Source: Nitrospirota bacterium
GTDB lineage: Bacteria; Nitrospirota; UBA9217
Assembly (NCBI GenBank): GCA_963749655.1
Contig: CAVVOB010000028.1
Location: 277,069 to 341,068, forward strand
Length of the DNA: 64,000 nt
Direction: 5' to 3'
Shown in pieces: positions 6,427-39,170 of the stretch (positions are counted from its first letter, which is position 1; every line of letters starts with the position of its first letter). A model generated the notes under the pieces. That model was not told the DNA's origin, ran no database searches, and was given only the letters and a program-made list of their open reading frames with translations. The translations under genes were made by a program, and so were the position numbers.

Positions 6427-7301
6427 TCAAACAGAGATTGTCATCCTTACCTCAACCGCCTGCCTGTCCAGTTCCTCACCAATGACCACCATCCTGCTGC
6501 TCCCGATTTCCCTCTCGAAAACTACCTTGTCCACTCTGCCGTAGGTGCTGTCGAACCGCCACGGTCCCTCCTGCGTGTTGACGAGTGCCTTTGCCCGGGC
6601 AACTGATCCGAAACGGTCCTTTCGACAGTTCTTCGAAAAAGTGCGGTGAAATCCGCCAGTGCCGGTCTGTTCTTGACTGCGAACGACAGGGTCTCGAAAT
6701 GAACATGACAGTCATCAGACCGGATATCGCGCTTCCGAGGCGCTCGGGAAGGGCGCTGCTGATCGTGGCATTTCTGTACGAAACAGAACTGCGCGGGGAT
6801 TGAGGGAGGCGATCAGCTGCTCTGCTTTGTCGATAGCGGTCGCATCTGCAAGGTCCACCTTGTTCACCGCGATGACGTCGGCATTAACGATCTGTTCCTC
6901 GAAAAAACTACCGTACATGCCTGATTCAAAGAGCTCGGCGAATTCGACGGCGTCGACGATGCCCACGACCGATGCAGGGCCTGTTCCCGCGCTTTCCAAC
7001 GCTTCGAGCACGCCGGAAGGCGAGGCCACGCCGCTCGGCTCGATCATCAGGTGGTCGGGCGCAAACTGGTTCACGATCCGCTTGATCGTGGTGATCAGAT
7101 CGAATTTGAGCGTGCAGCAGACGCAGCCGCTCGGAAGCTCGACTGACTCGATACCGCAGCGGAAAAAATCTCTCCGTCGATGCCGGCCTGGCCGAAGTCG
7201 TTCACGAGCACGACAGTCTTCTCCGTGCGGTCCCTCAGGTAGTTTCTGATGAACGTCGTCTTGCCTGAACCCAGGAGCCCGCATACAATGGTCGTCTTCA
7301 T
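6427..7301 (-). pseudogene. CobW/COG0523 (G3E family) metallochaperone GTPase with several frameshifts
   Basis: GLLGSGKTT, VNDFG, GCVCC, IEPSG, NKVD and a CobW_C-like RAKALV..SRMVVIG tail spread over at least three frames; may be sequencing error. Confidence 0.8.
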
Positions 7302-7313
7302 GCTGTCTTCAAG

Positions 7314-7329
7314 TGCAACGATGATGCCA
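7314..7329 (-). promoter_or_regulatory. Sigma-54 (-24/-12) promoter for the cobW-like gene
   Basis: Minus strand TGGCATCATCGTTGCA = GG-N10-GC. Confidence 0.7.
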
Positions 7330-7681
7330 CGTCGTTTGGTCAGTGATGACATCAAGCAGCAAGGGCATCAACAGAAGGCCGGCCTCCTGCAATGGCTGAT
7401 CAAAGACGCATAAACAGTTACAGCGCACTGAGGCAAAACGCCCCGTGTCGTGGGGAATTTTTCATCTATCTTCCAGATGAAGAAGTTCTCAAGTTCTGAA
7501 TGCATGCCCGCACAGAGCGTTGTTCTGTTTCTCCGCAACCTGCTGTCTCCTTCGCCGCAGACGCAAACTCAATAACATCAGTACGATCGACCAAGACGAA
7601 CCTCTTGGCCATTCCCGAAAGACCTATAAGGCAAAGACCTCGGCCTGACAGAGCGCATCTCTGCAATGTATGATTTATTGC

Positions 7682-7697
7682 TGGCATTGCAGTTGCA
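7682..7697 (+). promoter_or_regulatory. Sigma-54 (-24/-12) promoter for the methyltransferase cluster
   Basis: TGGCATTGCAGTTGCA = GG-N10-GC, 15 nt before ATG 7713. Confidence 0.72.
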
Positions 7698-7712
7698 GAA
7701 TACTGCATTGCA

Positions 7713-8045
7713 ATGAAAAACATCCTTCTCTGTTCCTCAAATCCCATTCTGACCAAGAACCTGTACGCTATCCTGCGCGACGCGGGCTTTACCGTGGAAT
7801 CTATTGAACATCCTGCTTTTGCAGTACAGAGCGTGATGACCAAAAAATTCAACGCCGTTATCATCGACTCGGAGCCTTTCGGACTTTCGGCTGAAGACGC
7901 GGTCGAGATCATCAGGACCGTCGCTCCCGCGCTGCCGGTCCTGTTCGTGGGAGAGGATGCCCATGGCGCGATGCCTGCTGCGGAAAGGCCGCTCGATCTC
8001 GAAGAGTTGAAGCGAACGATCCGCACCATTGCTGTTAACGGCTGA
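7713..8045 (+). CDS. Single-domain receiver-like protein (atypical, lacks the acidic pocket)
   Basis: CheY-like pattern: ILL.., AVIID, PVLF, RPLDLEEL. Confidence 0.65.
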   Translation: MKNILLCSSNPILTKNLYAILRDAGFTVESIEHPAFAVQSVMTKKFNAVIIDSEPFGLSAEDAVEIIRTVAPALPVLFVGEDAHGAMPAAERPLDLEELKRTIRTIAVNG

Positions 8046-8069
8046 ATAAAAAGCATGAAGGGAGAGACC

Positions 8070-9098
8070 ATGAAACCAAAGGACGTGCTTTTCAAAGCAT
8101 TCGAGGGGGGCAAGACCGACCGGCTTCCCGTAACCCTGTTCGGAGCGGGGATGTGGAGCATCAAAGGCTGGGGTTCGTCGTTCCAGGAGCTCTCGCAGGA
8201 TGCGGACAAAATGACGGCGGTGCTCGTCGACATGAGCGAGAAGCTCAAGTGCGACGTGGTCTACGCAGGATCAGGGTACAACAACTTCCATGCATCGGCC
8301 CTGGGCGGCAGGATCAAATTCCGGGAAATGGGCGCGCCGGACCTGGAAAACCATTTCGTTTCTTCCGAGGAGGACCTGGCAAAGCTGAATCTTGGCGACC
8401 TTGACAAGGATGGGACCATCAAAACCGTGATGAAGGCGCTACGCCAGACAAAGGCTAAGATCGGCGACAATTATGCCGTCACCCTGACGGCCTGGGGGCC
8501 TTTTACACTCGGCGCCCGGCTGGTCGGTGAAGAGGCGATGATGAAGGCCACGTTCAAAAAGCCCGCCTTTGTCGAGAAGGTCATCGACTTTGCGACGGAC
8601 ATACTGATCCATCTTTATGAGCCGGTGGTCGCGGACAAGACCCTCGAGCTCATCAGCCTCGCCGATCCCACGGCATCGGGCGACCTTATCTCCCGGAAGC
8701 AGTTCGAGAAGTTCGCGGTGCCCGCTCTCAAGAAGTTTACCGACTGGGCGAAATCCAAGGGCGCCTACACGCTCGTCCATATCTGCGGGAACACGACCGA
8801 CCGGCTCGACTTGTTTCCGGCAACCGGCGCGTCCTGCATCAGCCTGGACCACAAGACGGACATGGCGAAAGCGAAAGAAGCGCTCCACGGCAAGATGTGC
8901 TTCGGCGGCAACGTGGACCCCGTCAAGATCATGCTGAACGGCACCGTCCAGGACGTGGAGAACGCCTGCAAGGACGTTATCAGGACCGCCGGCATGGACG
9001 GGGGGTTCGTGCTCATGCCGGGATGCGACATCCCGCCGACGGTGCCTTATGCGAACATTCAGAAATTAATCCAGGTCGCGTATGAGACAAAGCTGTAG
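8070..9098 (+). CDS. MtaA/CmuA-type methylcobalamin:thiol methyltransferase (uroporphyrinogen decarboxylase family)
   Basis: URO-D fold motifs GPFT, GNVDP; Zn ligands HICG and PGCD. Confidence 0.85.
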   Translation: MKPKDVLFKAFEGGKTDRLPVTLFGAGMWSIKGWGSSFQELSQDADKMTAVLVDMSEKLKCDVVYAGSGYNNFHASALGGRIKFREMGAPDLENHFVSSEEDLAKLNLGDLDKDGTIKTVMKALRQTKAKIGDNYAVTLTAWGPFTLGARLVGEEAMMKATFKKPAFVEKVIDFATDILIHLYEPVVADKTLELISLADPTASGDLISRKQFEKFAVPALKKFTDWAKSKGAYTLVHICGNTTDRLDLFPATGASCISLDHKTDMAKAKEALHGKMCFGGNVDPVKIMLNGTVQDVENACKDVIRTAGMDGGFVLMPGCDIPPTVPYANIQKLIQVAYETKL

Positions 9099-9362
9099 TT
9101 GAAGCCATGGATAAAAAACAAAACTTGATTGGAACCACAGATGAACACGGGTGCGGTGAAGCCGCACGCACAGATAAAAAAACGCATCTTTCTCTTTAAT
9201 GATTGACCGTGTGCGGCGAAGCCGCCTGTGGTCGATGACTTCTTTAAAAGGAGGTGACACAGTTCCTAGAAGCGAAAGGAGGTCGATACATTGGGTATCT
9301 TGGAAGAGTTGAAAAAACTGTTTTTCCGGTCGCAATCAGCAACCGGGCAAGGGGAGGCAAAA

Positions 9363-9806
9363 ATGGCTGACAAGAAAATGACGTTGGAAGAAGTGAACGA
9401 GTACATGAAGAAGCAGTGCGGTTTCGTGCCGAGGATGTTCCAGATCATCAACACCGTGACCCCGGAACCGGGCAGGACTTTCGCCGACTTCTATGCAAGC
9501 ATCTTCGGCGACGGGGCACTCTCCCGCAAGGTGAAGGAGCTCATGTTCATGTCCGGCGGCGTCGCCTACTGCTCGCCGCGCTGCATCATTCACGTGATCC
9601 CGGCGATCAACGCCGGCGCGACCACGGGCGAGATCTTCGAGGCCGCATCGGTCGGCATGATCCTCGCCGGCTTCGTGCCCGGCGGCCCCGGCATACCCTA
9701 TGCCTTTGAATATGCCTTGAAGTGCCTTGACATCGAGGCCAAGTTCCGCAAGGGCGAGAAGTGGGAATACCTGCCGCAGCCGAAGTTCGATCATGGCGTG
9801 TTTTAA
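9363..9806 (+). CDS. Carboxymuconolactone decarboxylase/AhpD-family protein
   Basis: DGALSRKVKELM, CSPRC..H, AINAGAT..EIFEA; GGAGG RBS. Confidence 0.8.
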   Translation: MADKKMTLEEVNEYMKKQCGFVPRMFQIINTVTPEPGRTFADFYASIFGDGALSRKVKELMFMSGGVAYCSPRCIIHVIPAINAGATTGEIFEAASVGMILAGFVPGGPGIPYAFEYALKCLDIEAKFRKGEKWEYLPQPKFDHGVF

Positions 9807-10001
9807 CTTTCATACAACGGGGGAGCGTTCTCGGACCTCCCCCGGTATTTTGGACTTATTAAACAATTCATCCAGCAAAAGCGGTTAACCGCAGAGAACG
9901 CAGAGGTCGCAGAGATGTCGAAAACATTGAGGCCGTGCTCTTCTCGGCGTTTCTGCAGAAAAAAAATAGGTCTATTCCTTGTCGTATGAAAAGGAGTCAC
10001 G

Positions 10002-10949
10002 ATGTTTCGATTCAACACCGAACAAAAAGTCTTTTCTCTGGGCGGCATGAAGGTCGGCGGACAGCCGGCCGAGAACCCGCCGCTCCTGATCGCGTCCATG
10101 TTTCACAACAAGGACCGGATCGTCACGGACCGGAAGGGCAACTTCGACCGTGCGGCGGCAACCGCCCTGATCAAGAAGCAGGAAGAGCTCTCGGCCTCCA
10201 CCGGCATCCCCTCCATGGTGGCCATGGTGGCGAACTCGCCCGAGGAGGCGAAGATCTACATCGACTTCTACCGAGAAACGACGTCCATGCCCTTCGGCAT
10301 CGACATGTGGGTCGCGGAAAAACGCGCCCAGGCCACGGAATACGTCGCGAAGCTCGGCCTCCAGGACAAATTCCTCTACAACAGCATCACGCCCTGGGAC
10401 AAGGACATCAAGGGCCAGGTGCAGAAGCTCAAGGACCTCGGGATCAAGCATGTCGTGGTCCAGGCTTTTGACGATACGGACCAGTCCCCCGCCGGCCGGC
10501 TCAAGTCGCTCGAGAACATTCTGAGTCAGGGCGCCGACTGCTTCGAGACCATCATCGTGGACACCTCGGTCATGAATCTGCCGGCAACGTCGTTCTCACT
10601 CGTCGCCAACCGCATGATCAAGGAGAAGCTGGGCCTCCCCTGCGGCGGCGCCTATTCGAACGGCACGCACATGTGGAAAGACGCGAAGACGATCTGGAGC
10701 CTGGACGGCTTCAAGGCCATGGACGCCGTGGTGCAGGGCATGGCCTCGGCGATCTGGAGCGACTTCAACTTCTACGGCCCTATCGTCACGGCGCCCCGGA
10801 TCTTCCCGGCCGTGGCCGCGGCGCAGGTCCTGCTCTCGACGCTGGTGTACGACGAGACGAAGAAGATCTCGGAGAACGAGAACGTTCCGATCAGGAAATA
10901 TTTTTCCGACTTCCTCGGCAAGCTGACCTCGGGAGCGGCGAGAAAGTAA
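10002..10949 (+). CDS. MtrH-family pterin-dependent corrinoid methyltransferase (MtrH/MtgA-like)
   Basis: F..EQKVFSLGGMKVGGQPAENPPLLIASMF N-terminus; YNSI, GLPCGG, FYGPI motifs. Confidence 0.85.
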   Translation: MFRFNTEQKVFSLGGMKVGGQPAENPPLLIASMFHNKDRIVTDRKGNFDRAAATALIKKQEELSASTGIPSMVAMVANSPEEAKIYIDFYRETTSMPFGIDMWVAEKRAQATEYVAKLGLQDKFLYNSITPWDKDIKGQVQKLKDLGIKHVVVQAFDDTDQSPAGRLKSLENILSQGADCFETIIVDTSVMNLPATSFSLVANRMIKEKLGLPCGGAYSNGTHMWKDAKTIWSLDGFKAMDAVVQGMASAIWSDFNFYGPIVTAPRIFPAVAAAQVLLSTLVYDETKKISENENVPIRKYFSDFLGKLTSGAARK

Positions 10950-11048
10950 AAAAATCCGTGAGGAGTAAGGAGTGAGGCGTAAGGGGATGAATACCATCTC
11001 CTCACTCCTCACACCTAACTCCTTACTCATCGATACTGAGGAGGAACC

Positions 11049-12068
11049 ATGAATTCACGAGAACGCGTGCTGAAGCTCTTCGCCGGCGAGGAAGTGGACC
11101 GGCCGCCCTGCTTCAGCGGCATGGGCAACGTGACCACCGAAGGCCTGAAATCGCTGAACCAGAAGTTTGCGGCTACTCATCTGGACGCGAAGATGATGGC
11201 CGGGGCTGCGGCCTCGACCTACAAACTCTTTGGGTTCGAGTGCGGCGTGGCGCCCTTCGACCTCTGCATTGAGGCCGAAGCCCTGGGGTGCGAGATCAAC
11301 GTCTATGCCCATTCCGAGGACCTGCTGTACCCCACGATCAAGAAAAAGCTCATCCACAGCGAAGCGGAGATGGAGATTGCCGTTCCCGCGGACTTCACGA
11401 AGCGCGGACGGGTGCCGCTCATGGTCGAGGCACTCGGGCTCCTCAAGAAGGACATCGGCGGAAGCGCCGCCGTCGGCACCTACGTGCTCGGACCCTTCAC
11501 GCTCGCGGGGCAGGTGATGGAACTGAACGACCTGCTGAAGCTGTCCTTCAAGAAGCCCGACAAGGTCGGCAAGCTGCTCGATACGCTCACCGGCGCCATC
11601 ATCCAGACCGCGCGGGAATACCAGAAAGCCGGCGTCGACTACATCACGGTCCGCGAGATGGGGGCCACCTCGGACGTGCTTTCCCCCCGGGTGTTCAAGA
11701 GCCTGATCCTGCCCTATCTTAAGAAGATCTTCGAGGCCATTACCGTGCCAAGCGTGCTTCACATCTGCGGCAAGACGAACGACATCGTGCCGGCCATGGT
11801 CGAGAGCGGGGCCAAGGCGATCAGCGTGGACCAGAAGAACGATCTCGCTGAAACGCGCAAGAAACTCGGACCCAAGGCGCTCGTGTTCGGGAACTACGAT
11901 CCCTACAATGTGCTGGTCGCCGGCACGCCGGACCTGGTGCGCCAGACGATCAAAAAATGCATGGACGACGGTGCGAGCGCGGTTTGGCCCGGGTGCGACA
12001 TCTGGCCCACGGTGCCGGCGGACAATTTCAAGGCAATGATGGATGAAGTCAACAATTACAGGAGGTAA
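11049..12068 (+). CDS. Second MtaA/CmuA-type methylcobalamin:thiol methyltransferase
   Basis: PFDLCIEAEALG, GPFTLA, HICG, GNYDP, PGCD. Confidence 0.87.
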   Translation: MNSRERVLKLFAGEEVDRPPCFSGMGNVTTEGLKSLNQKFAATHLDAKMMAGAAASTYKLFGFECGVAPFDLCIEAEALGCEINVYAHSEDLLYPTIKKKLIHSEAEMEIAVPADFTKRGRVPLMVEALGLLKKDIGGSAAVGTYVLGPFTLAGQVMELNDLLKLSFKKPDKVGKLLDTLTGAIIQTAREYQKAGVDYITVREMGATSDVLSPRVFKSLILPYLKKIFEAITVPSVLHICGKTNDIVPAMVESGAKAISVDQKNDLAETRKKLGPKALVFGNYDPYNVLVAGTPDLVRQTIKKCMDDGASAVWPGCDIWPTVPADNFKAMMDEVNNYRR

Positions 12069-12072
12069 TCCG

Positions 12073-12761
<689 letters not shown>

Positions 12762-12765
<4 letters not shown>

Positions 12766-13427
12766 AAGAGGACCTGCGGAGCGAACTCCTGGAGCACGGC
12801 GCCGCGCTCGTGGGCATTGCCGGCCTGCGCGGCTACCTGAGCGGCGAGATAAGCCACCTGGACCGGGCGGTCTCCATTGCCGTCGACCGGCGGCTGAACG
12901 AAGACACCGTCGTCATCCTGGTGAAGCTCCAGAAGCGCGCGGTGCGCTTTCTCAAGTCCCGGGGGTACCGGACGCTGGCCATCCCGCCGGACTCGGACAG
13001 GAAGAAGAACACATTCATCTCGAAGCTCTACTCCCTGTTCAACCACAAGATGGCCGCCACGTCGGCGGGCCTGGGCTGGATCGGGAAGAACGGGCTCCTG
13101 ATCAACCCTGAATACGGCCCGCGCCTGACGCTCGCTACGGTGCTGACCGATGCGCCGCTCGGGCCGGACCGCCCCGTAGAGCAATGCCTCTGCGGTCTGT
13201 GCACGCTCTGCAGGGACCACTGCCCTTCCCGGGCGATCACCGGCGCGGAGTGGTCCCGCACCAGACCCTTCACCGAACTGGTGAAGCTGTCGGAATGCAG
13301 GAGCCACAAGACGACAAAGAGGAAGACCGAGGGAAAGCCGAATTGCGGGTTATGCATCAACATTTGTCCCTTTGGGAGAAAAGAAGTAAATGCGGAATTC
13401 ACCCTGCACGCACGCAAGCACTCGTAA
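12762..13427 (+). CDS. QueG/reductive-dehalogenase-like 2x[4Fe-4S] protein
   Basis: HKMAA..AGLGWIGKNGLLINPEYGPR, CGLCTLCRDHCP, CGLCINICP. Confidence 0.8.
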
Positions 13428-13562
13428 ACGCAGGGCACAAGCGGAATGCGGAAAAGCAAGATGTCATTTCCGCGAAGGCGGGAATCCGGGGTTTTCCTGA
13501 TCTTCATCCGTGTCCATCAGTGTTCATCCGTGGTTTCATAAGTCCATTCTTGGAGGAATTGC

Positions 13563-15548
13563 ATGTCGAAGAAACACAAAGTCATATTCCAGCCCTCGGG
13601 CAGACGCGGCGAGGTTGAAGAGGGGCAGACCCTGCTCCAGGCCGCGCAGTCCCTGGGCGTTGATATCGAAGCGCTCTGCGGGAACAAGAAGGTCTGCGGC
13701 AAATGCAAGGTCCGCATCGAGGAAGGCTATTTCGAGAAGGACAACATCGACTCAGGCATGGCCCACATCTTCCCGCCCGTGCCGTCGCCCGATGAGATGA
13801 AGCACATCAAGCCCCAGGACGGGCCGGGGATCAGGCTCGCGTGCCAATGCGAGGTCCGGGGCGACGTGAAGGTCTTCGTGCCCGAACGTTCGCGGGCCGG
13901 CAAGCAGGTCGTCCGGAAGGCGGCCAAGGAGCTCACGATCAAGCTCGACCCCGCAGTCAAGAAATACAATGTCGCGCTCACAAAACCCTCCCTGCACGAT
14001 ATGACGACAGGAGACTGGGAGCGCGTGCTCAAGTCCCTGGAAGACAACTACGGCCTGAAGGGCCTGACCTTCGACTACCTCGTCTTGAAAGACCTCCAGG
14101 ACACCCTGCGGAAGGGCGAATGGAATGCAACAGCCACGGTCTGGATGGACAAGGAGATCGTCAAGATCGAGCCGGGATTCGTCGAAGCAAGCTACGGCCT
14201 GGCCGTGGACATCGGCACCACCACCTGCGTGGGCTACCTCACGGACCTGAACACGGGCAAGGTGGTGAACACCGAATCCATGATGAATCCCCAGGTGCCC
14301 TACGGCGAGGACGTGATGTCGCGAATCACCTACGCCATGAGCAATCCCGGCGTGGGCCTGGACACCATGCAGAAGGCGATCATCGAGGGCTTGAACGAGA
14401 TCATCGAACGGGTTGTGACGGAAATCAATAAAAACGGTCCCCATCCCGGGTACGTCATCGACGACCTCACCATCGTGTTCAACACGGCCATGCACCATAT
14501 CTTCCTGGGCCTGAATCCGGAGTACATCGGCCGATCGCCCTTCATTCCCGCGGTCCAGAACTCGCTGGACATCAAGGCACGCGACCTGGGCATCAGAATC
14601 AATCCCTCGGCCTACATCCATGTGCTTCCCATCGAGGCCGGCTTCGTAGGCGCGGACAACGTCGGCGTCCTGATCGCCGAGGAACCCTACAACCAGGACG
14701 AGAACGTGCTGATCATCGATATCGGCACGAACGGCGAGCTCCTCCTGGGCAACCGGAACAAGGTCTGCTCCACGTCCTGCGCAACGGGGCCCGCCTTCGA
14801 AGGCGCACAGATCAAGTTCGGCATGCGCGCGGCGCCGGGAGCCATCGAGACCGTGGAGATCGACCCCGTGACCAAGGACCCCCGCTACAAGGTCATCGGC
14901 AAAGCCGACTGGTCCTCCCATATCGAGAAAATGAACGTCAAGGGCCTCTGCGGGTCCGCCATCATCCAGGTCGTGGCCGAAATGTTCAAGGCCGGCATCA
15001 TCGACAAGTCCGGACGGTTCGTGCCGGACCTGGGCACTCCGCGGGTCCGAAGGGACGCTGACGGTAAGCCCGAATACGTGCTTGCCTGGGCAAGCGAGAC
15101 CTCCATCGGCCAGGACGTGACCATCACCCAGGGCGACGTGCGCGCCCTCCAGCTGGCCAAAGGCGCTCTCTATACCGGGGCCAAGCTCATGATGAAACGG
15201 CTGGGCATAACCACCCTCGACAAGGTGATCCTGGCAGGCGCTTTCGGGAGCCACATCGACCGTGAGGCGTCGCTCCTGCTGGGTATGTTCCCGGACTGCA
15301 GCATGGACAAGATCTACGCCGTGGGCAACGCCGCGGGCGACGGTTCGCGCATGGCGCTTTTGAACCGCGGGAAACGAAAGGAAGCCAACGAACGGGCCCG
15401 GTGGGTCGAGTTCGTCGAGATCGCCACGGACCCGGCCTTCGAGAAAGAGTTCATGCAGGCCATGCACATCCCGCATATGAAGGACAAGTTCCCGAACCTG
15501 AAGGCGCTGCTCGAGAAATCGAAGAGTCTTGTGGAGATAAAGGCGTGA
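13563..15548 (+). CDS. ATP-dependent reductive activator of corrinoid proteins (RACo; ASKHA/DUF4445 with 2Fe-2S domain)
   Basis: N-terminal CG..CGKC..RLAC; DIGTT, DIGTNGE, GPAFEG, LAGAFG, GNAA. Confidence 0.92.
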   Translation: MSKKHKVIFQPSGRRGEVEEGQTLLQAAQSLGVDIEALCGNKKVCGKCKVRIEEGYFEKDNIDSGMAHIFPPVPSPDEMKHIKPQDGPGIRLACQCEVRGDVKVFVPERSRAGKQVVRKAAKELTIKLDPAVKKYNVALTKPSLHDMTTGDWERVLKSLEDNYGLKGLTFDYLVLKDLQDTLRKGEWNATATVWMDKEIVKIEPGFVEASYGLAVDIGTTTCVGYLTDLNTGKVVNTESMMNPQVPYGEDVMSRITYAMSNPGVGLDTMQKAIIEGLNEIIERVVTEINKNGPHPGYVIDDLTIVFNTAMHHIFLGLNPEYIGRSPFIPAVQNSLDIKARDLGIRINPSAYIHVLPIEAGFVGADNVGVLIAEEPYNQDENVLIIDIGTNGELLLGNRNKVCSTSCATGPAFEGAQIKFGMRAAPGAIETVEIDPVTKDPRYKVIGKADWSSHIEKMNVKGLCGSAIIQVVAEMFKAGIIDKSGRFVPDLGTPRVRRDADGKPEYVLAWASETSIGQDVTITQGDVRALQLAKGALYTGAKLMMKRLGITTLDKVILAGAFGSHIDREASLLLGMFPDCSMDKIYAVGNAAGDGSRMALLNRGKRKEANERARWVEFVEIATDPAFEKEFMQAMHIPHMKDKFPNLKALLEKSKSLVEIKA

Positions 15549-15840
15549 CACAAATGCGGAATTCGGAATGCGGAGTGCGGAATAGAAAAACAGGATTTGT
15601 AACCACGGATAAACACGGATAAGAACAAGCCCTTCACCCGGTTAAATGATTTTCACTTGTGTTCATCTGTGTGTCCGGCGCAGCCGGACCCGTGGTTGCC
15701 AAAGTCGTTCGTTATGTGTTTTAAAGGTTACCGACGGAACCCCTTCCGGCGGTAATGTGGATGCAGGGGCGGGAAGGTTGACCTTTCCCCGGGCCTTTCC
15801 GCCCCTTCTTCCTTAAACAGATCGAAAAGGAAACAGGTTC

Positions 15841-16158
15841 ATGACAACAGTCGTCGTACACTCGGGAGCCTGCGGGTTCACGGTCACGATCACGGCAAAA
15901 AAAGGACAGGCAGGCAAGATCGTCCTTTCGCTGGACACGGACTGCGAAATGGTGAAGAAAATGCTCGCAGACATCGCGGTCCTCGACCGCTTCGCGCCGC
16001 TCGCGGGATTCACGACCAACCCCGTGCACCAGGCTGCGGCAAAACATTTGAAGCATGCGGCCTGCGCGGTCCCTTCCGGGATCCTGAAGGCGATCGAGGT
16101 GGAAGCCGGACTCAATGTTGCAAAAGACGCGACCATCGTGTTTGTCACGGAGAAGTGA
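15841..16158 (+). CDS. Small Cys-containing conserved hypothetical protein (DUF6951-like)
   Basis: GACGF, TDC and HAACAVPSGILKAIEVEAGL motifs; AAGGA RBS. Confidence 0.7.
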   Translation: MTTVVVHSGACGFTVTITAKKGQAGKIVLSLDTDCEMVKKMLADIAVLDRFAPLAGFTTNPVHQAAAKHLKHAACAVPSGILKAIEVEAGLNVAKDATIVFVTEK

Positions 16159-16269
16159 CGCTACCGGACGGTTCCCCAGTTGACGATTCGAATCCCGCTC
16201 CCTGCTCATTCTCAAGGGTTGTTCCTGTGATGTGTTATACTTTTTACAGCAAGTCAGGAATGAGGTGTC

Positions 16270-16956
16270 ATGGGAAAATTACTCGTTGTTGCCGCGTACA
16301 CGGCACTCGCGGCTTTCTGGACGCGCTTTGGAATGCACTTTCTGCTGTGGCAGCGCGCCGCGCGCCGGTCAGGAGAATCCTTCTTTCCGAAGCCGAAGCC
16401 GCGTTCAAAGGCCTGCGCGCAAACAGCGCTCGACCTTCTGTTCTTCGGCAGGCTCCTGGTGCGGAACCCGGCCCTGTGGCTGGGAGAATGGGTGTTTCAC
16501 TTCACCTTTCTTCTGGTCCTGCTCCGGCATCTTCGGTACTTCCTGAACCCGGTCCCCTCCTGGGTTTGGAGCATGCAAACGCCGGGATTGATCGCCGGGT
16601 ATATTCTTCCCCTGTCCCTGCTGTACATTCTCGCTGTCCGGTTCCTGTCAAAACGGGAAAAATACTCCTCACCAGCCAACGTGTTTCTGCTGGCAGTGGT
16701 GCTGATCATCAGCACCCTGGGCGTGTTGATGCACGGGTGGCTGAAGCCGAACCTGGTGGACGTAAAACTCTTCGTCCTCGGCCTCGCTGTCCTGAAGCCT
16801 GTCGCGGCCCCGGCAAGTCCGTGGTTCTGGGCCCACTTCCTGCTGGTCCTGGTTCTTGCGGTCTTCGTGCCCACGCACATCTTCTCCGCGCCGCTGGTGA
16901 TGTGGGAGGCGAGGAAGCGGGAGCAGGCGCTGCGTTTGGTGATGCATGAAAAATAA
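16270..16956 (+). CDS. NarI/HdrE/DsrM-like membrane b-type cytochrome subunit
   Basis: About five TM helices with His pairs FH..LRH and AH..TH; adjacent to a CCG-domain Fe-S protein. Confidence 0.72.
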   Translation: MGKLLVVAAYTALAAFWTRFGMHFLLWQRAARRSGESFFPKPKPRSKACAQTALDLLFFGRLLVRNPALWLGEWVFHFTFLLVLLRHLRYFLNPVPSWVWSMQTPGLIAGYILPLSLLYILAVRFLSKREKYSSPANVFLLAVVLIISTLGVLMHGWLKPNLVDVKLFVLGLAVLKPVAAPASPWFWAHFLLVLVLAVFVPTHIFSAPLVMWEARKREQALRLVMHEK

Positions 16957-17093
16957 TGAAAGAGCGAAAGATTCAAGACCCGGAGATTTACCACAGAGAG
17001 CACAGAGATAAAGCAGCTGATCTCGATTTTCTCTGTGAGTCTCTGTGGTTAATAAAGATATTAATCCGGCAATCTTGCCGACTGTATGTTTTT

Positions 17094-18297
17094 ATGAATA
17101 AGAAACGTTCATACAGCCGAGGAGCTTTCCGCGGCCCAGATCATCGAGATCGACGCCTGCACGCAGTGCGGCGAGTGCCTCAAGCACTGCCCGGTGCAGG
17201 ACGTGACCGGCAATTCTACGGTGTCGCCGCCCGAGAAGATCCGCATGTTCCGGGAGTTCCTCCGCTCGACGGACGGGCTCAAGGCGCGGCTCTTCGGACC
17301 GGCTGACGCGGACAAAAAGCTCCTCGACGACTTCACGAAAGCGGTCTACGAGTGCACGACCTGCGGCGCCTGCGGCCAGAACTGCCCGGTCGGCATCTTC
17401 ACCCAGCGCCTCTGGCCCATGCTCAGGAAAGAAATGGTGAAGCGGGGGCTCGGACCCCTCGGCGTCCAGGCAAACATGCCTGCCGCGATCATGAAGAGCG
17501 GCAACCCCTACGACAAGCCTGCGTCGGAGCGGTATGCGCCCTGGTTCCCGGAGCAGGTGAAAGTCGCCGAGAGATCGGAGATCGCCTACTACGCAGGATG
17601 CACCGGCGCATACGAAGCGCAGCCCATGGTCAGGGCGGACGTGCAGGTCCTCCATGCGATCAACGAGCCCTTTACCATGCTGCCCGCCGAGGAAGAGGTG
17701 TGCTGCGGCTTTCCGCTCTTCATCACCGGACAGCACGACCAGCTCAAGGACCTGGTGACGCGGCTGGTTGAAGGATACCGGAGCCGCGGCGTCAGAACGC
17801 TCGTCTGTTCCTGCCCCTGCTGCGTGAACATCATGACCAGGGACTGGCCCCTGTTCTACGGCAGGGAGCTGCCCTTCAGGATACGGCACATCACGCAATA
17901 TGTATCCGACGCGATCAGCGCGGGCAAACTCAGATTCTCGCAGGAGCTGAAGGAACGGATCATCTACCACGATCCCTGCTATCTCTCGCGCGGCGTGGGC
18001 GTTATCGAAGAACCGCGGGCCGTCCTGAGGAGCATCCCCGGTTTAACGCTCCTCGAATTCGAGCGCTCTGGCCTCAACTCCCGATGCTGCGGGTCCGGAG
18101 GGGCAGCGAGAAAGGTCTTTCACGAAAATGCCATTGCCATGGGCAGGCTGACCATCGACGAGGCAGTAGCCAAGAAGGCTGACCGTTTGATCCTGTCCTG
18201 TCCGGCATGCTACGCCAAAGTGAACGAGGCCATGAAAGGGCACAAGAACCAGATCCGGATCACGGACATCATGGAGCTGGTGAGCGGATTGATTTAG
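17094..18297 (+). CDS. HdrD/GlpC-type Fe-S protein with two CCG domains; apparent frameshift just after the ATG at 17094
   Basis: CTQCGECLKHCP, CTTCGACGQNCP, YAGC/CCG/CPCC, HDPC/CCG/CPAC; frame open from 17098, upstream of the GTG at 17194. Confidence 0.87.
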
Positions 18298-18452
18298 ATT
18301 CAGGAGCACGCTTTGCCACGAATTAACGCGAATTTGCACGAATGGACAAAAAATAGAACCCCTGTCAGGCTTGAGGGTTGCTCTCTTCGTGCTGATGTCT
18401 TATAGAGTTGGGAAGCGGTTGATTCGAAATTGTCCGGCATTGAATTCGATCA

Positions 18453-18526
18453 GTCATTCCTGCGAAAGCAGGGATCCAGGTTCCCTCACGAAATGCCGCT
18501 GGATTCCGGGTCAAGCCCGGAATGAC
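18453..18526. repeat. Pair of REP/dRS3-like palindromes (further copies near 13463-13487 and 61471-61495)
   Basis: GTCATTCCTGCGAAAGCAGGGATCC and inverted GGATTCCGGGTCAAGCCCGGAATGAC. Confidence 0.65.
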
Positions 18527-18543
18527 GGCGTGAAGAAAAGAGT

Positions 18544-19803
18544 ATGAGCCACTTTTCGATAAAATGCAGTAAGTGCGGCAAGATCCTCGAGAACGCCTTC
18601 TGCGCCTTCTGCGAGCACTGCAAGGACGCGCTTCTCGTGACGGATTATCACGACCGGCGTTTCGCTGAGCAGGACCGGCCGGGCGTCTGGCGGTTCAACT
18701 GGCTGCCGATTCATGAGGGCCCGGTGCCGCAGACCGGACCGTTGGTGTACCGCTCGCAGGGACTTGCCGCGTCGCTCGGCCTCGAGAACCTCTTCATCGC
18801 CTTCAACGGTTACTGGCCGGAGAAGGGCGCCTTGATCGAGACCTGCACGTTCAAGGAGTTCGAGGCCGCTATCGTGCTCCAGAACGCGCGGGAGAACGGC
18901 GTCGAGGGCCTGATCGTGGCTTCGGCCGGAAACACCGCGCGGGCCTTTGCCCACCTGTCCGCAGTCACGGGCTTCCCGATCGTTATCGTCGTGCCGCGCA
19001 TGTGCATCATGGAAATGTGGTACCTGGAACGGCAGTCCGTGATCCCGACGCTTGCCGTGGCAGACGGCGACTATGCTGACTCCATCGACGTGGCAAAGCG
19101 GATCGCCATGGCTACGGGGTATCCCTTTGAAGGCGGCGTGAAGAACATTGCGAAAAGAGACGGCCTCGGCATCGTGATGCTCGAAGCGGTCTCGAAGATC
19201 GGAAGGCTGCCGGACCATTATGTCCAGGCCGTGGGCAGCGGCACCGGAGCTGTGGGCGGATGGGAGATGGCTGAGCGTTTCTTGAAAGACGGGCGATACG
19301 GTTCGCGTCTGCCGATTCTGCACCTGGGCCAAAACCTGCCTTTTGCTCCCATGCTTCATGCCTGGGAAAAAGGGAGCAGGACCCTGGCCCCTGAAGATCT
19401 TGATCCGGCGCTCATCTCCCGGATCACCACCCGCGTGCTGTCCACGCGGTATCCTGCGTACTCGGTCCAGGGCGGAGTGTACGATGCGCTCTCGGCATCG
19501 AACGGCAGGATGTACGGCGTTGAGAACGATGCGGTCTACAGCGGCATGGATCTGTTCCTCAAGACCGAAGGCATGGACATTGTTCCTGCCTCAGGCGTTG
19601 CCGTGGCAGTTCTCGAGGAAGCCCTGCGCAGGGGCGCTATCAGCAGGAGCGAAACGATTCTTCTGAACATCACCGGCGGAGGAGAAGCGAGGCTGCGGCA
19701 GGACCGGAGGACCTTCGCTGTTGTGCCGAAATACATCTCCAAAAACATCACTGATAAAGAGATCGAGGAGCTCTTGTGCAACAGCCTGAAGAAAAGCTCA
19801 TAG
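18544..19803 (+). CDS. Cysteate synthase (MA3297-type, threonine-synthase-like PLP enzyme)
   Basis: N-terminal CxxC..C, NGYWPEKGA..TCTFKEFEA (PLP Lys), ASAGNT, EGGVKNIAKRDGLG, QAVGSGTG, LNITGGG. Confidence 0.87.
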   Translation: MSHFSIKCSKCGKILENAFCAFCEHCKDALLVTDYHDRRFAEQDRPGVWRFNWLPIHEGPVPQTGPLVYRSQGLAASLGLENLFIAFNGYWPEKGALIETCTFKEFEAAIVLQNARENGVEGLIVASAGNTARAFAHLSAVTGFPIVIVVPRMCIMEMWYLERQSVIPTLAVADGDYADSIDVAKRIAMATGYPFEGGVKNIAKRDGLGIVMLEAVSKIGRLPDHYVQAVGSGTGAVGGWEMAERFLKDGRYGSRLPILHLGQNLPFAPMLHAWEKGSRTLAPEDLDPALISRITTRVLSTRYPAYSVQGGVYDALSASNGRMYGVENDAVYSGMDLFLKTEGMDIVPASGVAVAVLEEALRRGAISRSETILLNITGGGEARLRQDRRTFAVVPKYISKNITDKEIEELLCNSLKKSS

Positions 19804-20979
19804 CCGTTCTGAAAAAGAACAGCGTCGACTTCACGGCGTCGCTTCCTTGCGAGAAGATCAAAACGCTCCTCGAAATGGTCGGCGGCTCTTTCCCTCATGT
19901 TCCGCTGACGCGCGAGGAGGAGGGTGTGGGCATCTGCGCGGGTGCTGCGCTCGCGGGCAAACGGCCGGCCCTGTTCGTCCAGAGCTCGGGCCTGGGCAAT
20001 ATGATCAATGCCTTGCTGTCTCTCACCCAGTTTTACGAACTTCCGCTTGCGATCTTTGTGAGCAGGCGCGGTGTATACAAAGAAAAGATCGAGGCCCAGC
20101 TCCCCATGGGACAGCGGCTGGGCGGCATCCTTTCCGGCGCAGGCATCGGTTGGACCGAGATCAATACGGCAAACGACCTTGCAAAGGTAGAGCAGGAACT
20201 GCCGGAGGTGTATTCGAAAAATCTCGTTCATGCGTTTTTAATGAGCCCGGCGGTGTGGGAAGGGTCCCAGTGCGGAACGACGGAGAAACAAGGCGGAATT
20301 CGGAATTCCCGCGCACTCCGTGCATCCGCACTCGTAAACGCTGGGGACAGGTCGGAATGCGGAAGTGAAACCGCAAAAGCCGGTGCAGACTCCTCACTCC
20401 GTACTCCTCACTCCTCACTGCCGCAACTCACCCGCTACGACCTCATCAAGATCATAGCGCCCTATCTGGAGAACAACGTTGTCGTGAGCAACCTCGGCTG
20501 GCCTTCGAAAGAACTCTATGCGATCAAGCACCAGCCGTCGAACTTCTACATGCTCGGGAGCATGGGGATGGCTAACGCCTATCGGCCTGGGTATCGCGCT
20601 TTCGACGAAGAAGAAAGTTTTCGTGCTCGACGGCGACGGGAGCCTCTTGATGAATCCCGGCACGCTCGCAACAGCAGCCGGACAAGGGCCGAAAAACCTG
20701 ACCATCCTCGCCATCGACAACGGCGCCTACGGGTCCACGGGAAATCAGCCCACTCTTGCCGCAAGCTGCGTCGACCTGGAGCAGGTGGCACAAGGGTTCG
20801 GGATCAGGAATACAGTGAAGGTTTCGGAAGAGAAAGAAATCAACGAAGCGATGAAACAGCAACGGTCAGGATTTACCTTCATTCACATTCTGGCGGTGCC
20901 GGGGAACAAGGACGTGCCGAACATTCCGGTTCACCACCTGGAAATCAAGAAGCAGGTGCAGGAGTTCTTGCGGGGTTAA
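19776..20979 (+). CDS. comDE: Fused sulfopyruvate decarboxylase alpha+beta; one extra base near 20574
   Basis: ComD motifs SLPC, TREEEGVGICAGA, QSSGLGN; ComE motifs NLGWPSKEL, NFYMLGSMG, DGDGSLLMN, DNGAYGSTGNQPT (ThDP motif in the shifted frame). Confidence 0.87.
20293..20364 (+). repeat. ~70 bp dispersed repeat (copies 39176-39250, 61389-61457; diverged copy 13389-13453)
   Basis: Core TCCCGCGCACTCCGTGCATCCGCACTCGTAAACGCTGGGGACAG flanked by CGGAAT. Confidence 0.85.
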
Positions 20980-21031
20980 TAAAGCAGACCGTTAGCAGAC
21001 TGCTTCGCTGTTGTCGAAAGTCATCGCGGCA

Positions 21032-21442
21032 TCACTCATTGGCTGTGACCATCAGCCGTTCCCTGTCCTTGAACAGCATATTGCATTTATTGTTCAGCAG
21101 ATTTACCACGACGCCCTTGCCGAAGGTCTCGTGATTGACAATGTCACCGACCCGGTATTTCGAAGCCCTGCTGTAATCGCGCTCTTTTCCCTTCGCCTCT
21201 GCAAGACTGGCTGCCCAGACGAGCTCCGCTGTCGCCGCTTCGTCGACGACTTTTTTAGCCCTTGCCTTATGGACCTTCTGAGCGTCAATCTGAACCCTGA
21301 ATTTGTGCATACTGCCGCAGGTCTTGCATCTCACTTTTACGATCGTCTCTCTAGCCATCATCATGATGGTATGATCGCTGTTCGCCTTGCACTTCCCGCA
21401 ATAGGAATCGATGTTTTGACCAGAATTAAATTTCTCCACCAT
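21032..21442 (-). CDS. Conserved hypothetical protein with Zn-ribbon and C-terminal Tudor/SH3-like segment
   Basis: CGKC..H..CKTC..H; YRVGDIVNHETFGKGVV. Confidence 0.7.
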   Translation of the reverse strand: MVEKFNSGQNIDSYCGKCKANSDHTIMMMARETIVKVRCKTCGSMHKFRVQIDAQKVHKARAKKVVDEAATAELVWAASLAEAKGKERDYSRASKYRVGDIVNHETFGKGVVVNLLNNKCNMLFKDRERLMVTANE

Positions 21443-21597
21443 ACCGGCTCTCCCTGTAATGCCAAAATTTGCATAAAGAGGCTTCTGTGGGACAGTGGCA
21501 GCATACACCCTGTGGTCTGGAAAAGCTGTACCTCTTTTTACGATAATGCAAGGCAAAGGGAAGGAAGGGGCGACGTCGCAATCCAAGAGTGTATTAT

Positions 21598-21655
21598 ATT
21601 GAACGCGCGCGTGAGGAGCGTGCTTTTCGCGACTCACTCGACGCGCTCGTTAATT
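21598..21655 (-). mobile_element. attC-like integron recombination site (58 bp)
   Basis: AATTAAC..GCGCGTCGAG..CTCACGCGC..GTTCAAT imperfect palindrome with unpaired C; upstream ORF stop TAA lies inside the R'' box. Confidence 0.72.
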
Positions 21656-22159
21656 TCTAATTTCAACTAAAACATCTTGCGGGAAGTTCATCTGATATGA
21701 CCCAAACTCCACAGCTTTGACTCTTTCCCGTCCAACCTCAAGCTCGACGGTTTCAATTTGGCCACTGTACATATGCACGAACACAAAGAGACTTTTCGGT
21801 GTGTTTGCGACTGATGCTGTTAACCAATTTAGAAAATCGTCACGGAAGCCCTCACGTCTCACCTTCATGTTCTTTTCGTGATCGTCCAGCGCTCTTTGAA
21901 TTTTGCTTTCAGACCAGTTCTTTTTCTTATATTTATGCCGAAGTGCTTCTTTTGCTCTTTTTTCTTCGCCCGGTCTAGCAGGCGCGTAAAGATCACAAGA
22001 ACACATTGCCGTAATAATGGCGAGGGAATCATAATCTTTTGGCAAAAGGTTGGTAATGGCCTGATTAGTAATCCTAAGTGGCTGCAATCCCTTGGGCAAC
22101 ACCGCTAGAATCGAATTTGCCGTCGTTTTAGGAAATGCGACTGTAATGTAATAGCACAT
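21650..22159 (-). CDS. Hypothetical protein (gene-cassette-like)
   Basis: 169-aa AT-rich ORF, MCY start and CSC motif, bounded by GTTAATT and attC. Confidence 0.7.
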   Translation of the reverse strand: MCYYITVAFPKTTANSILAVLPKGLQPLRITNQAITNLLPKDYDSLAIITAMCSCDLYAPARPGEEKRAKEALRHKYKKKNWSESKIQRALDDHEKNMKVRREGFRDDFLNWLTASVANTPKSLFVFVHMYSGQIETVELEVGRERVKAVEFGSYQMNFPQDVLVEIRN

Positions 22160-25495: not shown

Positions 25496-26142
25496 ATGCA
25501 GGACCTTTCCCCCTTCGATCATCACCGGGATGAATATGAGGCGTGGTTCGTGCGCCATGCCGCGGTCTACCGATCCGAGCTGTCGGCAATCAGGGCCCTG
25601 ATGCCGGACCACGGCAGGGGGCTCGAGATCGGCGTCGGAAGCGGTCTCTTTGCGGGACCGCTCGGCATGCAGGCCGGCGTCGATCCATTCGCCAAGGATG
25701 CTCGAACTGGCCCGACAACGGGGCATCGACGTTGTCCAGGGCGTTGCAGAATCACTTCCTTTCCGGACCAATCCTTCGATCTCGCGCTCATGGTCACTAC
25801 GTCTGTTTCCTCGATGACATCGACCTTGCTTTCAGCGAGGCCTTCCGCGTACTGAAAAATAATAAAGGCGTCTTTCTGGTCGGCTTCGTGGACAAGGCAA
25901 GCGCCATCGGCCGGTCCTACGAGGAGAAGAAGGACAAGAGCCTTTTCTACTGCAACGCGGAATTCTATACGGTCCCTGACCTGCTTGCCCATCTCAGCCT
26001 TGCCGGCTTCATAAACTTCCGCATTGTCCAGACACTCTTTCATTCCCTTTCCGAGAGCACAAAACAAGAACCGATTCGCGAGGGACACGGGGAAGGATCT
26101 TTTATCGTGATCAAGGCGGAGAAGGAGGGTGACAGCCCATGA
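25496..26142 (+). pseudogene. Class I SAM-dependent methyltransferase with about three frameshifts
   Basis: LEIGVGSG; GVDP/SPRMLELA..AESLPF; VCFLDD..EAFRVLK in alternating frames. Confidence 0.75.
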
Positions 26143-27042
26143 CTAGAGCCGGAAACCGCAGAGCGAAAGTCGCACTCGTCAGGACAGCAGACCGCGAAAC
26201 CGGCGTTCCTGCGGTGATCGATCCGCTCAAGATCGATGCCTTCCAGGGAAAGAACGTACTGCTCAAGCCAAACTTCAATACCGACGACCCGTATCCCGGC
26301 TCAACCCACAACGACACCCTGCGGTACCTGATCAATCGACTCCGGACCCTGGGCGCGGGCAGGATCACCGTGGCAGAACGAAGCGGACCTGCTGATACGA
26401 GCGAAGTGATCACGTCAAAGGGCGTGGACAAGCTCTGCAAGGAGCTGAGCGTTGATCTCCTCAACTTCGAGGACCTTCCGCCTGACGCATGGAAGCGGTA
26501 AAGCCGGAGCACTGCACGTGGAAAACAGGCTTCGACATTGCCCGGCCCGTGCTCGACGCCGATTCTGTCGTAACAACTGCTGCCTCAAGACCCACGGGTA
26601 CGGCGTCGTCTTCACGATATCCCTGAAACTTGCCGTTGGCATCACCCACAAGCGCAACATGGCCGAACTGCACTCCTCAGGTGGGAACATGGGCAGGCTG
26701 ATCGCCGAGATCAACCAGGCTTATGCACCGTCTCTCATCCTCCTCGACGCCATCGAAGCTTTCGTGGACCGCGGCCCCATGACGGGCCCCCGCAAGCGGG
26801 CTGATGTCCTTGTCGCAAAATCGGACCGGACCGCCATCGGCGCGGTCGGCCTCGCGATCCTGCAACATCTCGGCAGCAACGCGGCCATCATGGGAACGAA
26901 GATCTTCGAGCACGACCAGCTCCGCCGCGCTGTGGAGCTCGGTCTCGGCATATCAGACCCGCAGCAGATCGAATTCGTGACTGGTGACAAGGAAAGCCGG
27001 AAGTATGCGGAAAAGCTGAAAGAGATCCTTAGAAGGGGATGA
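26139..27042 (+). pseudogene. DUF362-family protein with about two frameshifts
   Basis: LLKPNFN, AERSG, LKTH..FTISLKLAVG, GLG motifs across frames. Confidence 0.75.
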
Positions 27043-34014: not shown

Positions 34015-34034
34015 TTGTCCACAGGTGTGGATAA
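34015..34034. promoter_or_regulatory. Pair of DnaA boxes upstream of dnaA
   Basis: TTGTCCACA-GG-TGTGGATAA. Confidence 0.8.
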
Positions 34035-34081
34035 GCATGTTTGTAACCAGGGCCGTTTTTCGGGGTATTTTTGGGGTATCT

Positions 34082-35410: not shown

Positions 35411-35496
35411 AAGTAAAAACAAAAATACCAAAACTTTTTATTGCTATTTCGTAGGGATTCTGATACTATTCGGGATGTGACAGGAGGCTTCCCTAG

Positions 35497-36767: not shown

Positions 36768-39170
<2,403 letters not shown>

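Follow-up and report, generated by a model that had tools for sequence, protein, structure and literature searches.

The question raised by this locus is what use a bacterium makes of a cysteate synthase (CS) gene followed by a fused sulfopyruvate decarboxylase (comDE) gene, a pair found among the coenzyme M (CoM) genes of Methanosarcina. The pair lies at 18544–20979 of a 64,000-nucleotide stretch of contig CAVVOB010000028.1 from a Nitrospirota metagenome-assembled genome (MAG); the whole stretch is referred to here as the window. CoM is regarded as a cofactor of methanogens, alkane-oxidising archaea and a few aerobic alkene-oxidising bacteria. The main clue to the use of the pair, which was not noticed in an earlier note on this DNA, is that cs-comDE forms the 3′ end of a conserved 13-gene cluster. 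Its position at the end of an operon of methyl-transfer and disulfide-reductase-like genes hints at an undescribed bacterial use of CoM. The best reading, to which we give about even chances, is that a CoM-type thiol may be made for corrinoid methyl transfer. What is observed is the family memberships and the linkage of the genes, from which we infer the whole chain of this reading.

The open reading frame (ORF) at 18544–19803 on the forward strand encodes 419 amino acids and gives 470.7 bits against the NCBIfam model TIGR03844 for cysteate synthase, whose cut-off is 324.9 bits, while the threonine synthase models give at most 86 bits. In an alignment of 52 CS sequences, F103 is invariant and K104, which we take to be the lysine that binds pyridoxal phosphate (PLP), is nearly invariant; the window CS has both. 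In the phylogenetic tree, 80 CS sequences are separated from two ThrC-like outgroup sequences by a branch of length 4.31 with a support of 100. Judged by its sequence, the product is thus a true member of the cysteate synthase family, for which the conversion of phosphoserine and sulfite to cysteate is predicted. Homologues from Nitrospirota MAGs are already labelled 'cysteate synthase' in databases.

The stop codon of CS is at 19801–19803 and the GTG start codon of ComDE at 19776, which gives an overlap of 28 nt. The second gene extends to 20979 on the same strand and contains one extra base at 20573/20574. The ORF that starts at the GTG codon (19776–21134, +) includes the ComD part, with 180.1 bits on TIGR03845 (cut-off 147.95), where three relatives with an intact gene give 184–185 bits. 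The ComE model TIGR03846 is split in the window: its first 46 positions are found in the ComD ORF with 61.8 bits, and the other 135 positions in the frame of 20575–20979 with 156 bits. The ComE parts of the three intact relatives give 221.8, 229.9 and 214.0 bits on this model, whose cut-off is 221.5, and their ComDE proteins give 203–221 bits on the phosphonopyruvate decarboxylase model TIGR03297, below its cut-off of 312.5. These profile matches place 19776–20979 in the fused sulfopyruvate decarboxylase family, most clearly by its ComD part, with the ComE part of the intact relatives around its cut-off.

The earlier note had described a PLP enzyme, identified as cysteate synthase, that overlaps the ComD start by 28 nt, with ComD and ComE motifs in one ORF apart from a single extra base near 20574, and had called this the Methanosarcina-type arrangement in a bacterium. 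All of this stands, and the extra base is exactly one. Threonine synthases and phosphonopyruvate decarboxylases, clustering with which would, according to the note, refute its proposal, do not account for the two proteins: CS groups with cysteate synthases by both profile scores and tree, and ComDE of the relatives stays below the phosphonopyruvate decarboxylase cut-off. In M. acetivorans, as given in an excerpt of PMC11844431, cs is MA3297, comDE is MA3298, and MA3299 encodes MMP16/ComF. Of 48 archaeal loci, 39 have ComD on the downstream side of CS. The Nitrospirota genes resemble this type 2 set of M. acetivorans in that the same two families are present in the same order, cs then comDE, with a fused ComDE, and in that CS and ComD score above the NCBIfam equivalog cut-offs, with ComE of intact relatives around its own. 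However, the Nitrospirota genes overlap by 25–28 nt, whereas the archaeal genes are separated; moreover, only two of the three genes of M. acetivorans are shared, MMP16/COG1900 and MCR were not found, and the pair is surrounded by a bacterial cluster of 13 genes.

The extra base in ComDE is a single A inside GCT-AAC-GCC. It is absent from all six relatives in the DNA alignment, and ComDE is one ORF of 374–410 amino acids in 10 of 10 assessable relatives (11 loci were examined, of which L010 ends with its contig). The source genome (G000) contains further frame breaks. When the ORFs of the relatives' loci were compared with the whole genome, 4 of 22 genes were split, including threonine synthase and ComDE; this count comprises 21 collapsed places, three of them flagged as split, with ComDE added from the merged CS/ComDE row. 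Since the break is private to this MAG and other genes of the MAG are broken as well, the extra base is most likely an assembly or sequencing error, and the organism itself probably has an intact gene. The earlier note had considered that a real frameshift inactivating ComE would refute its proposal; as the break is private to this MAG, it does not refute the proposal, and a true lesion in this MAG is the less likely case. A real break would deprive ComE of the thiamine diphosphate-binding GDG...N motif, which lies downstream of it and is hence in a frame other than that of ComD in the window ORF. A programmed frameshift was also considered and was rejected, as the base is missing in all of the aligned relatives and the gene is one ORF in all assessable ones. 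The window is therefore a flawed exemplar of the locus because of the frame breaks of its MAG.

The cluster consists, in order, of genes for a response regulator, MtaA-like protein 1, an AhpD-like protein, an MtrH-like protein, MtaA-like protein 2, a corrinoid protein, an RDH/QueG-like protein, RACo, a DUF6951 protein, a DsrM-like protein, an HdrD-like protein, CS and ComDE, all encoded on the forward strand. The two MtaA-like proteins, encoded at 8055–9098 and 11049–12068, are methyltransferases of the URO-D family with 204.6 and 240.2 bits on the Pfam URO-D model, respectively. The closest solved relative of both is the methylcobalamin:CoM methyltransferase of M. mazei (MtaA, 4ay7), against which MtaA-like 2 gives 157.6 bits. 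MtaA-like 2 passes the cut-off of the methylcobalamin:coenzyme M methyltransferase subfamily NF004889 (265.5 bits against 244) and that of the MtaA/CmuA model TIGR01463 (244.1 against 235.4). Both proteins align HICG and PGC to the corresponding positions of 4ay7, and the H-x-C ... C motif, whose positions in 4ay7 are presumably zinc ligands, is kept.

The MtrH-like protein (10002–10949) is assigned as a methylcorrinoid:pterin methyltransferase with 329.2 bits on NF002142 (cut-off 287), and its solved relatives are MtrH (8z9u_B) and the methylcorrinoid:tetrahydrofolate methyltransferase of D. hafniense (6sj8). The corrinoid protein (12043–12765) has the Pfam domains B12-binding and B12-binding_2 and gives 202.5 bits on TIGR02370, whose cut-off is 215.3; its likely start is 12073, from which the relatives align at 93% identity. 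RACo (13563–15548), a reductive activator of corrinoid proteins, is recognised by the Pfam models RACo_C_ter, Raco_middle, RACo_linker and Fer2. Between these two genes, a short RDH/QueG-like protein with two 4Fe-4S motifs is encoded at 12762–13427; it scores 73 bits on the RDH model TIGR02486 and 62 bits on QueG, far under both family cut-offs, and its residues 99–206 align to PceA (4uqu) and QueG (5d08).

The two genes that precede the pair encode a DsrM/NarI-like membrane cytochrome b in an HdrE-like position (16270–16956) and an HdrD/DsrK-like iron-sulfur protein (17094–18297) with the Pfam domains CCG and Fer4_8. The cytochrome b gives 65.7 bits on the DsrM model NF038037 (cut-off 300), and no Pfam match was found for it. 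The HdrDE-like assignment is a putative one, made from the CCG and Fer4_8 domains and from the neighbouring cytochrome b. The HdrD-like gene is broken near 17112, where its first six codons are in another frame; the relatives have 400 amino acids and start with MKNKRSF. Selenocysteine read-through was rejected as an explanation of the short HdrD-like ORF, since these six N-terminal codons are in the other frame and no in-frame TGA is found at a Cys position.

The arrangement is strongly conserved. Gene order and orientation are identical in all eight relatives' loci that were compared, which come from four genera, and, beside the genes with frame breaks, ten other cluster genes are intact and 60–94% identical to those of the relatives. 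Among 25 Nitrospirota loci from a species-representative collection, with 57–81% CS identity, ComDE follows CS in 24 (the exception is L048). An upstream flank is present in 24 loci, and in 21 of these an HdrD-like gene precedes CS (exceptions L045, L049 and L053). In the divergent clusters L042, L054 and L059, a FolD gene is inserted between the DUF6951 and Hdr-like genes. Among 41 relatives, an orthologue of MtaA-like 2 was found in 18 and CS above the cut-off in 15, and every genome with CS also carries the MtaA-like 2 orthologue; the three genomes with MtaA-like 2 and no passing CS are G009, where CS is frameshifted, G015, where the contig ends in the DsrM-like gene, and G005, which is 74% complete. 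In the phylum as a whole, CS exceeds the cut-off in 67 of 401 Nitrospirota genomes, representing 35 of 162 genera and several families; the three largest other families in the sample gave no CS (0/76, 0/40 and 0/28).

In the reading that we favour, CS would form cysteate from phosphoserine and from sulfite provided by the cell's own sulfur metabolism, where the supply of sulfite and sulfide is suggested by dsrAB in the source genome (dsrA gives 560 bits in a profile search, and dsrB adjoins it). A housekeeping or general aminotransferase would convert cysteate to sulfopyruvate, which ComDE would convert to sulfoacetaldehyde. Sulfoacetaldehyde would then become 2-mercaptoethanesulfonate, that is, CoM, or a near relative of it without the archaeal ComF, the thiol being formed by a chemical reaction with sulfide that the cell produces, or with the help of DUF6951 and the DsrM/HdrD-like pair in sulfide delivery or reduction. 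According to the excerpt of PMC11844431, a Methanosarcina mutant lacking MMP16 grows without CoM if sulfide is present, and an abiotic reaction between sulfide and sulfoacetaldehyde is reported. By analogy with the sulfide-dependent growth of this mutant, a sulfide-producing bacterium could dispense with ComF. The zinc MtaA-type enzymes would use the thiol as a methyl acceptor or donor via the corrinoid protein, and the MtrH-like enzyme would connect the corrinoid to tetrahydrofolate. RACo, perhaps fed by the RDH/QueG-like ferredoxin, would reactivate the corrinoid, and the HdrD/DsrM-like pair would draw on the quinone pool to hold the thiol in its reduced form. The tie to CoM chemistry is drawn from the position of MtaA-like 2 above the methylcobalamin:CoM subfamily cut-off and from the zinc-motif positions kept in both MtaA-like proteins. 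The tie to folate-bound one-carbon units is drawn from the FolD genes inside the three divergent clusters and from the methylcorrinoid:tetrahydrofolate enzyme among the relatives of the MtrH-like protein.

Several results weigh against this reading. MtaA-like 1 gives 188.1 bits on TIGR01463, below its cut-off of 235.4, and MtaA-like 2 gives 247.3 bits on the MtaA equivalog (MtaA_Meth), whose cut-off is 400. The best NCBIfam match of the HdrD-like protein is TfrB, a subunit of the CoM/CoB fumarate reductase, with 173–181 bits (cut-off 385), and on DsrK it gives 70–98 bits, also below the cut-off; being under every NCBIfam cut-off, it is indistinguishable by its scores from DsrK- or TfrB-like proteins. 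In the source genome, the MMP16/ComF model TIGR03287 is matched only in its ferredoxin part, with at most 30.1 bits, and COG1900 (PF01837) was not found in G000, G001, G002, G014, G019 or G024, where four of the five relatives in this set are 99–100% complete. The thiol-forming step is thus left without a known enzyme. The mcrA model TIGR03256 has no match in the source genome, in a search that did not include the known CoM-dependent bacterial enzymes. Bacterial O-demethylase-type systems, which do not depend on CoM, are likewise composed of a URO-D methyltransferase, an MtrH-like enzyme, a corrinoid protein and RACo. In addition, two loci (L045 and L049) carry cs-comDE without the cluster alongside. 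Finally, the break at 20573/20574 could, with lower probability, be a real lesion: it is covered by no listed contig of the only four metagenome runs that shared 5–19% of the words of 17000–21000, all of them as Logan contigs of relatives.

The resemblance to O-demethylase-type systems leads to the alternative that sulfoacetaldehyde or cysteate is made for another product, such as isethionate, taurine, sulfoacetate, a sulfonolipid head group or an osmolyte, and that the methyltransferases form an ordinary methyl-X:tetrahydrofolate system in which no sulfonate serves as a cofactor. Such bacterial systems consist of MT1, a corrinoid protein, MT2 and an activating enzyme, as exemplified by 6sj8, and the Nitrospirota operon likewise unites a URO-D methyltransferase, a corrinoid protein, an MtrH-family MT2 and RACo. 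On the other hand, it adds a second MtaA-type protein, the Hdr-like pair, DUF6951, the AhpD-like protein and cs-comDE, and O-demethylase-type systems are not known to require a sulfonate thiol. The failure to find ComF/COG1900 in the six genomes would fit this alternative, as would the presence of CS without ComDE in Spirochaetota, Odoribacter, a cyanobacterium and a Desulfobacteria MAG (ComDE in 0 of 7 loci), which indicates that cysteate has other uses in bacteria. Among these, sulfonolipid (capnine) producers of the Bacteroidota, for which we take the Odoribacter locus L104 as representative, share the CS family with the Nitrospirota; however, their CS belongs to a separate clade and has no ComDE alongside. 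The CS of the other bacteria is placed as this separate clade among the archaeal ones with a support of 100, the cluster contains neither a reductase nor an aminotransferase or acyltransferase that would lead to such products, and CS is confined, among the relatives searched, to genomes with the methyltransferase cluster, the gene order being kept down to 57% CS identity. This co-occurrence and the kept order are hard to explain without a functional tie, and another product is therefore considered unlikely. Breakdown of sulfonates is a different use of the same enzyme, in which imported C3 sulfonates would pass through sulfopyruvate and be turned by ComDE into sulfoacetaldehyde, and sulfite set free in the process would feed dissimilatory sulfite reduction. 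ComDE is known in a catabolic role in sulfolactate-degrading bacteria, dsrAB is present, and genes for NMT1/SsuA-like binding proteins adjoin CS in two loci (L048 and L049). However, the PLP enzyme is a cysteate synthase equivalog, biosynthetic and consuming sulfite, no desulfonating enzyme is located in the cluster, and Xsc was not found in the source genome (best 122 bits, cut-off 676), in a search that did not extend to isethionate sulfite-lyase; breakdown is judged very improbable.

Decay of the cluster in this strain, in which the breaks of ComDE, the HdrD-like gene and the cobW-like gene upstream would be real and ComE inactive, is compatible with any of these uses. Of the four split genes seen in the 64-kb window, three belong to the cluster or adjoin it, whereas dnaA, dnaN, gyrB, gyrA, serS and dnaX are whole. 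The concentration is not compelling, as this part makes up about a quarter of the DNA compared and would receive at least three of four breaks with a chance of about 0.06. Furthermore, threonine synthase and one more gene that do not belong to the cluster are also split, the cobW-like break is in a homopolymer run, and the other ten cluster genes are intact at the identities given above; we consider decay unlikely. CoM synthesis for corrinoid methyl transfer continues to be the reading that we prefer. A more specific form of it would combine a ComF-free synthesis of CoM, an IscU/SufE-like DUF6951 protein and a quinone-linked DsrM/HdrD-like pair that insert or recycle the thiol sulfur, a soluble, MCR-free shuttle from methyl-CoM to methyl-tetrahydrofolate run by the two MtaA-type enzymes, the corrinoid protein and the MtrH-like enzyme, and a CoM-dependent methylotrophy, for example on methylated sulfur or methoxy compounds, that feeds sulfite or sulfate respiration; this combination is put forward tentatively and is somewhat unlikely to hold as a whole.

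The DUF6951 protein (15841–16158; 98.6 bits on Pfam DUF6951) has C11, C35, H72 and C75 invariant in an alignment of 11 sequences, a Cys-Cys-His-Cys set that we regard as parallel to the ligand spacing of IscU. Its AlphaFold model has a pLDDT of 88.4, and the top Foldseek matches are SufE and ISCU with E values of 0.05–0.2, the best having E 0.052 and a probability of 0.97. In the VIA comparison the best match is the A. fulgidus IscU 4eb5_C (Z 6.5, rmsd 3.3, 92 residues), where unrelated folds reach Z 6.0–6.3. A profile search of the PDB sequences gave no IscU and no solved relative, and a look-up in the ESM Atlas gave DUF6951 clusters only. From the model, an IscU/SufE-like fold and a role as sulfur acceptor are possible, and are taken as a lead rather than a finding.

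Compared with the CoM methyl-transfer and heterodisulfide machinery of Methanosarcina (MtaA/MtbA/MtsA, corrinoid proteins, MtrH and HdrDE), the cluster is alike in having MtaA-like zinc methyltransferases, a corrinoid protein, an MtrH-like protein and a cytochrome b beside a CCG protein. It differs in that the Nitrospirota proteins are all under the archaeal equivalog cut-offs and in that no membrane Mtr complex, MCR or sign of coenzyme B is seen; the pterin is also different, being probably tetrahydrofolate in view of FolD in some clusters. In Xanthobacter, CoM is made from phosphoenolpyruvate by unrelated enzymes for aerobic alkene metabolism. The Nitrospirota, for which corrinoid methyl transfer is proposed, are anaerobes, and the likeness lies in a bacterium that makes CoM for a non-methanogenic purpose, here proposed from genes. 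Bacterial biosynthesis of CoM in Xanthobacter is the subject of PMC9457059. Literature searches, in part on Nitrospirota and Thermodesulfovibrionia, found no paper describing CoM-type genes or such an operon in Nitrospirota, and no usable one on the residues with which MtaA binds CoM. New here are the frameshift evidence, the FolD insertions, the weak IscU/SufE-like fold of DUF6951, the approximately unbiased (AU) test and the phylum-wide count.

The origin of the pair was considered with a CS tree of 82 sequences (28 Nitrospirota, 45 archaea, 7 other bacteria and 2 ThrC-like outgroups), from which the partial or frameshifted L041, L056, L067 and L070 and two further outgroup loci without a usable ORF were omitted. 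The archaeal and other bacterial CS form one clade that excludes Nitrospirota (SH-aLRT 88), and the Nitrospirota CS form one group under LG+G4 (support 92). The CS of Spirochaetota, Odoribacter and the cyanobacterium form their own clade nested in the archaeal one. The ComDE tree of 26 Nitrospirota and 35 archaeal sequences gives the same single split with a support of 82. A tree in which Nitrospirota are joined with Methanosarcinales/Methanoperedens is not rejected by the AU test (p-AU 0.353, LG+G4), where this group was named after the tree had been seen. The single Nitrospirota group in both trees indicates that the pair was acquired or inherited once, long ago, and neither the donor nor the direction is resolved by the trees. 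The earlier note had proposed archaea-to-bacteria transfer or shared ancestry; the trees favour neither of the two options. A recent transfer from Methanosarcina was rejected, as the archaeal CS are at most 48% identical to the window CS and the free trees place Nitrospirota outside the archaeal clade, although the AU test does not reject the joint clade.

The operon unites, in many anaerobic Nitrospirota, archaeal precursor genes with MtaA-, MtrH- and Hdr-like genes. If the proposed use is true, CoM chemistry would reach the sulfur-cycling bacteria of sediments and aquifers, and a route independent of ComF would exist for the final step of CoM synthesis, which is still under debate. In that case, CoM, its analogues such as bromoethanesulfonate, and the cs/comDE genes would be unusable as markers of methanogens in environmental data.

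The source MAG has a size of 4.27 Mb in 39 contigs, with 86.6% completeness and 5.8% contamination, and the window is on a 341-kb contig. The host is a bacterium: the window carries a sigma-54 activator, YidC with a periplasmic domain, dnaA, dnaN, gyrB and gyrA, and the closest named homologues are from Nitrospirota MAGs. Other frame breaks were seen in this genome and its group. The threonine synthase gene of the source genome (contig C27:48773–50119) aligns to the relatives' proteins in three frames, and only weak ThrC fragments were therefore recovered. The DUF362 gene at 26139–27042 (+) is split into two overlapping ORFs that cover profile positions 1–75 and 104–199, and is another frame break of this genome. 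In two MAGs of the same group (G009 and L056), nearly every gene is frameshifted.

At the 5′ end of the cluster, the first gene (7713–8045) encodes a receiver-only response regulator, with 25.2 bits on Response_reg, below the cut-off of 30.2. The AhpD/CMD-family protein (9291–9806; 26.8 bits on Pfam CMD) has a C-x3-C-x2-H motif and is the most conserved protein of the cluster, with 89–94% identity in eight relatives; it has a weak PDB sequence match to AhpD (5dik), and the PDB sequence comparison gave distant matches only for it, the HdrD-like and the RDH-like proteins. Upstream of the cluster and divergent from it, a CobW/G3E-family GTPase is encoded at 6433–7301 (−; Pfam cobW). Its frame switches at 7155–7158 in an A/T run, where the 291-residue orthologues of G002 and G011 align in two frames, and the contig of one relative has an extra T behind 7158. 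A cobW-like gene is located beside the cluster in seven of eight relatives' loci, the eighth ending with its contig. Weak matches to selenoprotein families were seen for 6433–7301 (CobW-related selenoprotein, 49.8 bits) and 9291–9806 (GSU3128/AhpD-type (seleno)proteins, 20–24 bits), and no in-frame TGA was found at the relevant sites of either gene. A scan of 7300–21700 for promoters and terminators gave no excess over shuffled sequences (4 against 3.8 and 16 against 14.4, respectively).

A copy of a short dispersed repeat (families D1 and D10) is located in frame in the ComD-ComE linker (20290–20349). ComDE of the source genome, read through the break, would be about 27 residues longer than that of G014. 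Further copies of this repeat are located at 13389–13454, at the 3′ end of the RDH/QueG-like gene, and at 15553–15583, in the spacer between RACo and DUF6951. Contigs of four metagenomes join 13487 to 18498–18499, both of which are intergenic, skipping about 5010 nt; this junction is better explained by copies of a repeat element that is widespread between genes than by a deletion.

Some observations concern the relatives. The congener G004 carries two copies each of CS and MtaA-like 2, on contigs C40 and C16, which may reflect either a duplication of the cluster or the binning of two strains together. The NMT1/SsuA-like genes that adjoin CS are at L048:5319–6362 and L049:10415–11362, and the L048 flank has no ComDE. 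A second corrinoid cluster is present in L121 (G002:C2:685000–704900) and L122 (G016:C9), with genes for a histidine kinase, a response regulator, URO-D, cobW, a MoxR-like AAA protein, a 903-residue protein without a Pfam family, DUF2284, a second URO-D, a corrinoid protein and RACo. The first of its two URO-D proteins is about 50% identical to MtaA-like 2, MTHFR is encoded divergently upstream, and it has no MtrH-like gene. By tblastn, this second cluster was not found in the source genome, nor was MTHFR with the G002 protein as the query, from which absence is not implied at 86.6% completeness. In the window itself, dnaA, dnaN, gyrB and gyrA are consecutive at 34025–41775, so that about 13 kb separate the 13-gene cluster from the probable region of the replication origin, and just upstream of dnaA a small ORF (33212–33454, −) has in its translation a CPxP motif that is presumably TusA-like.

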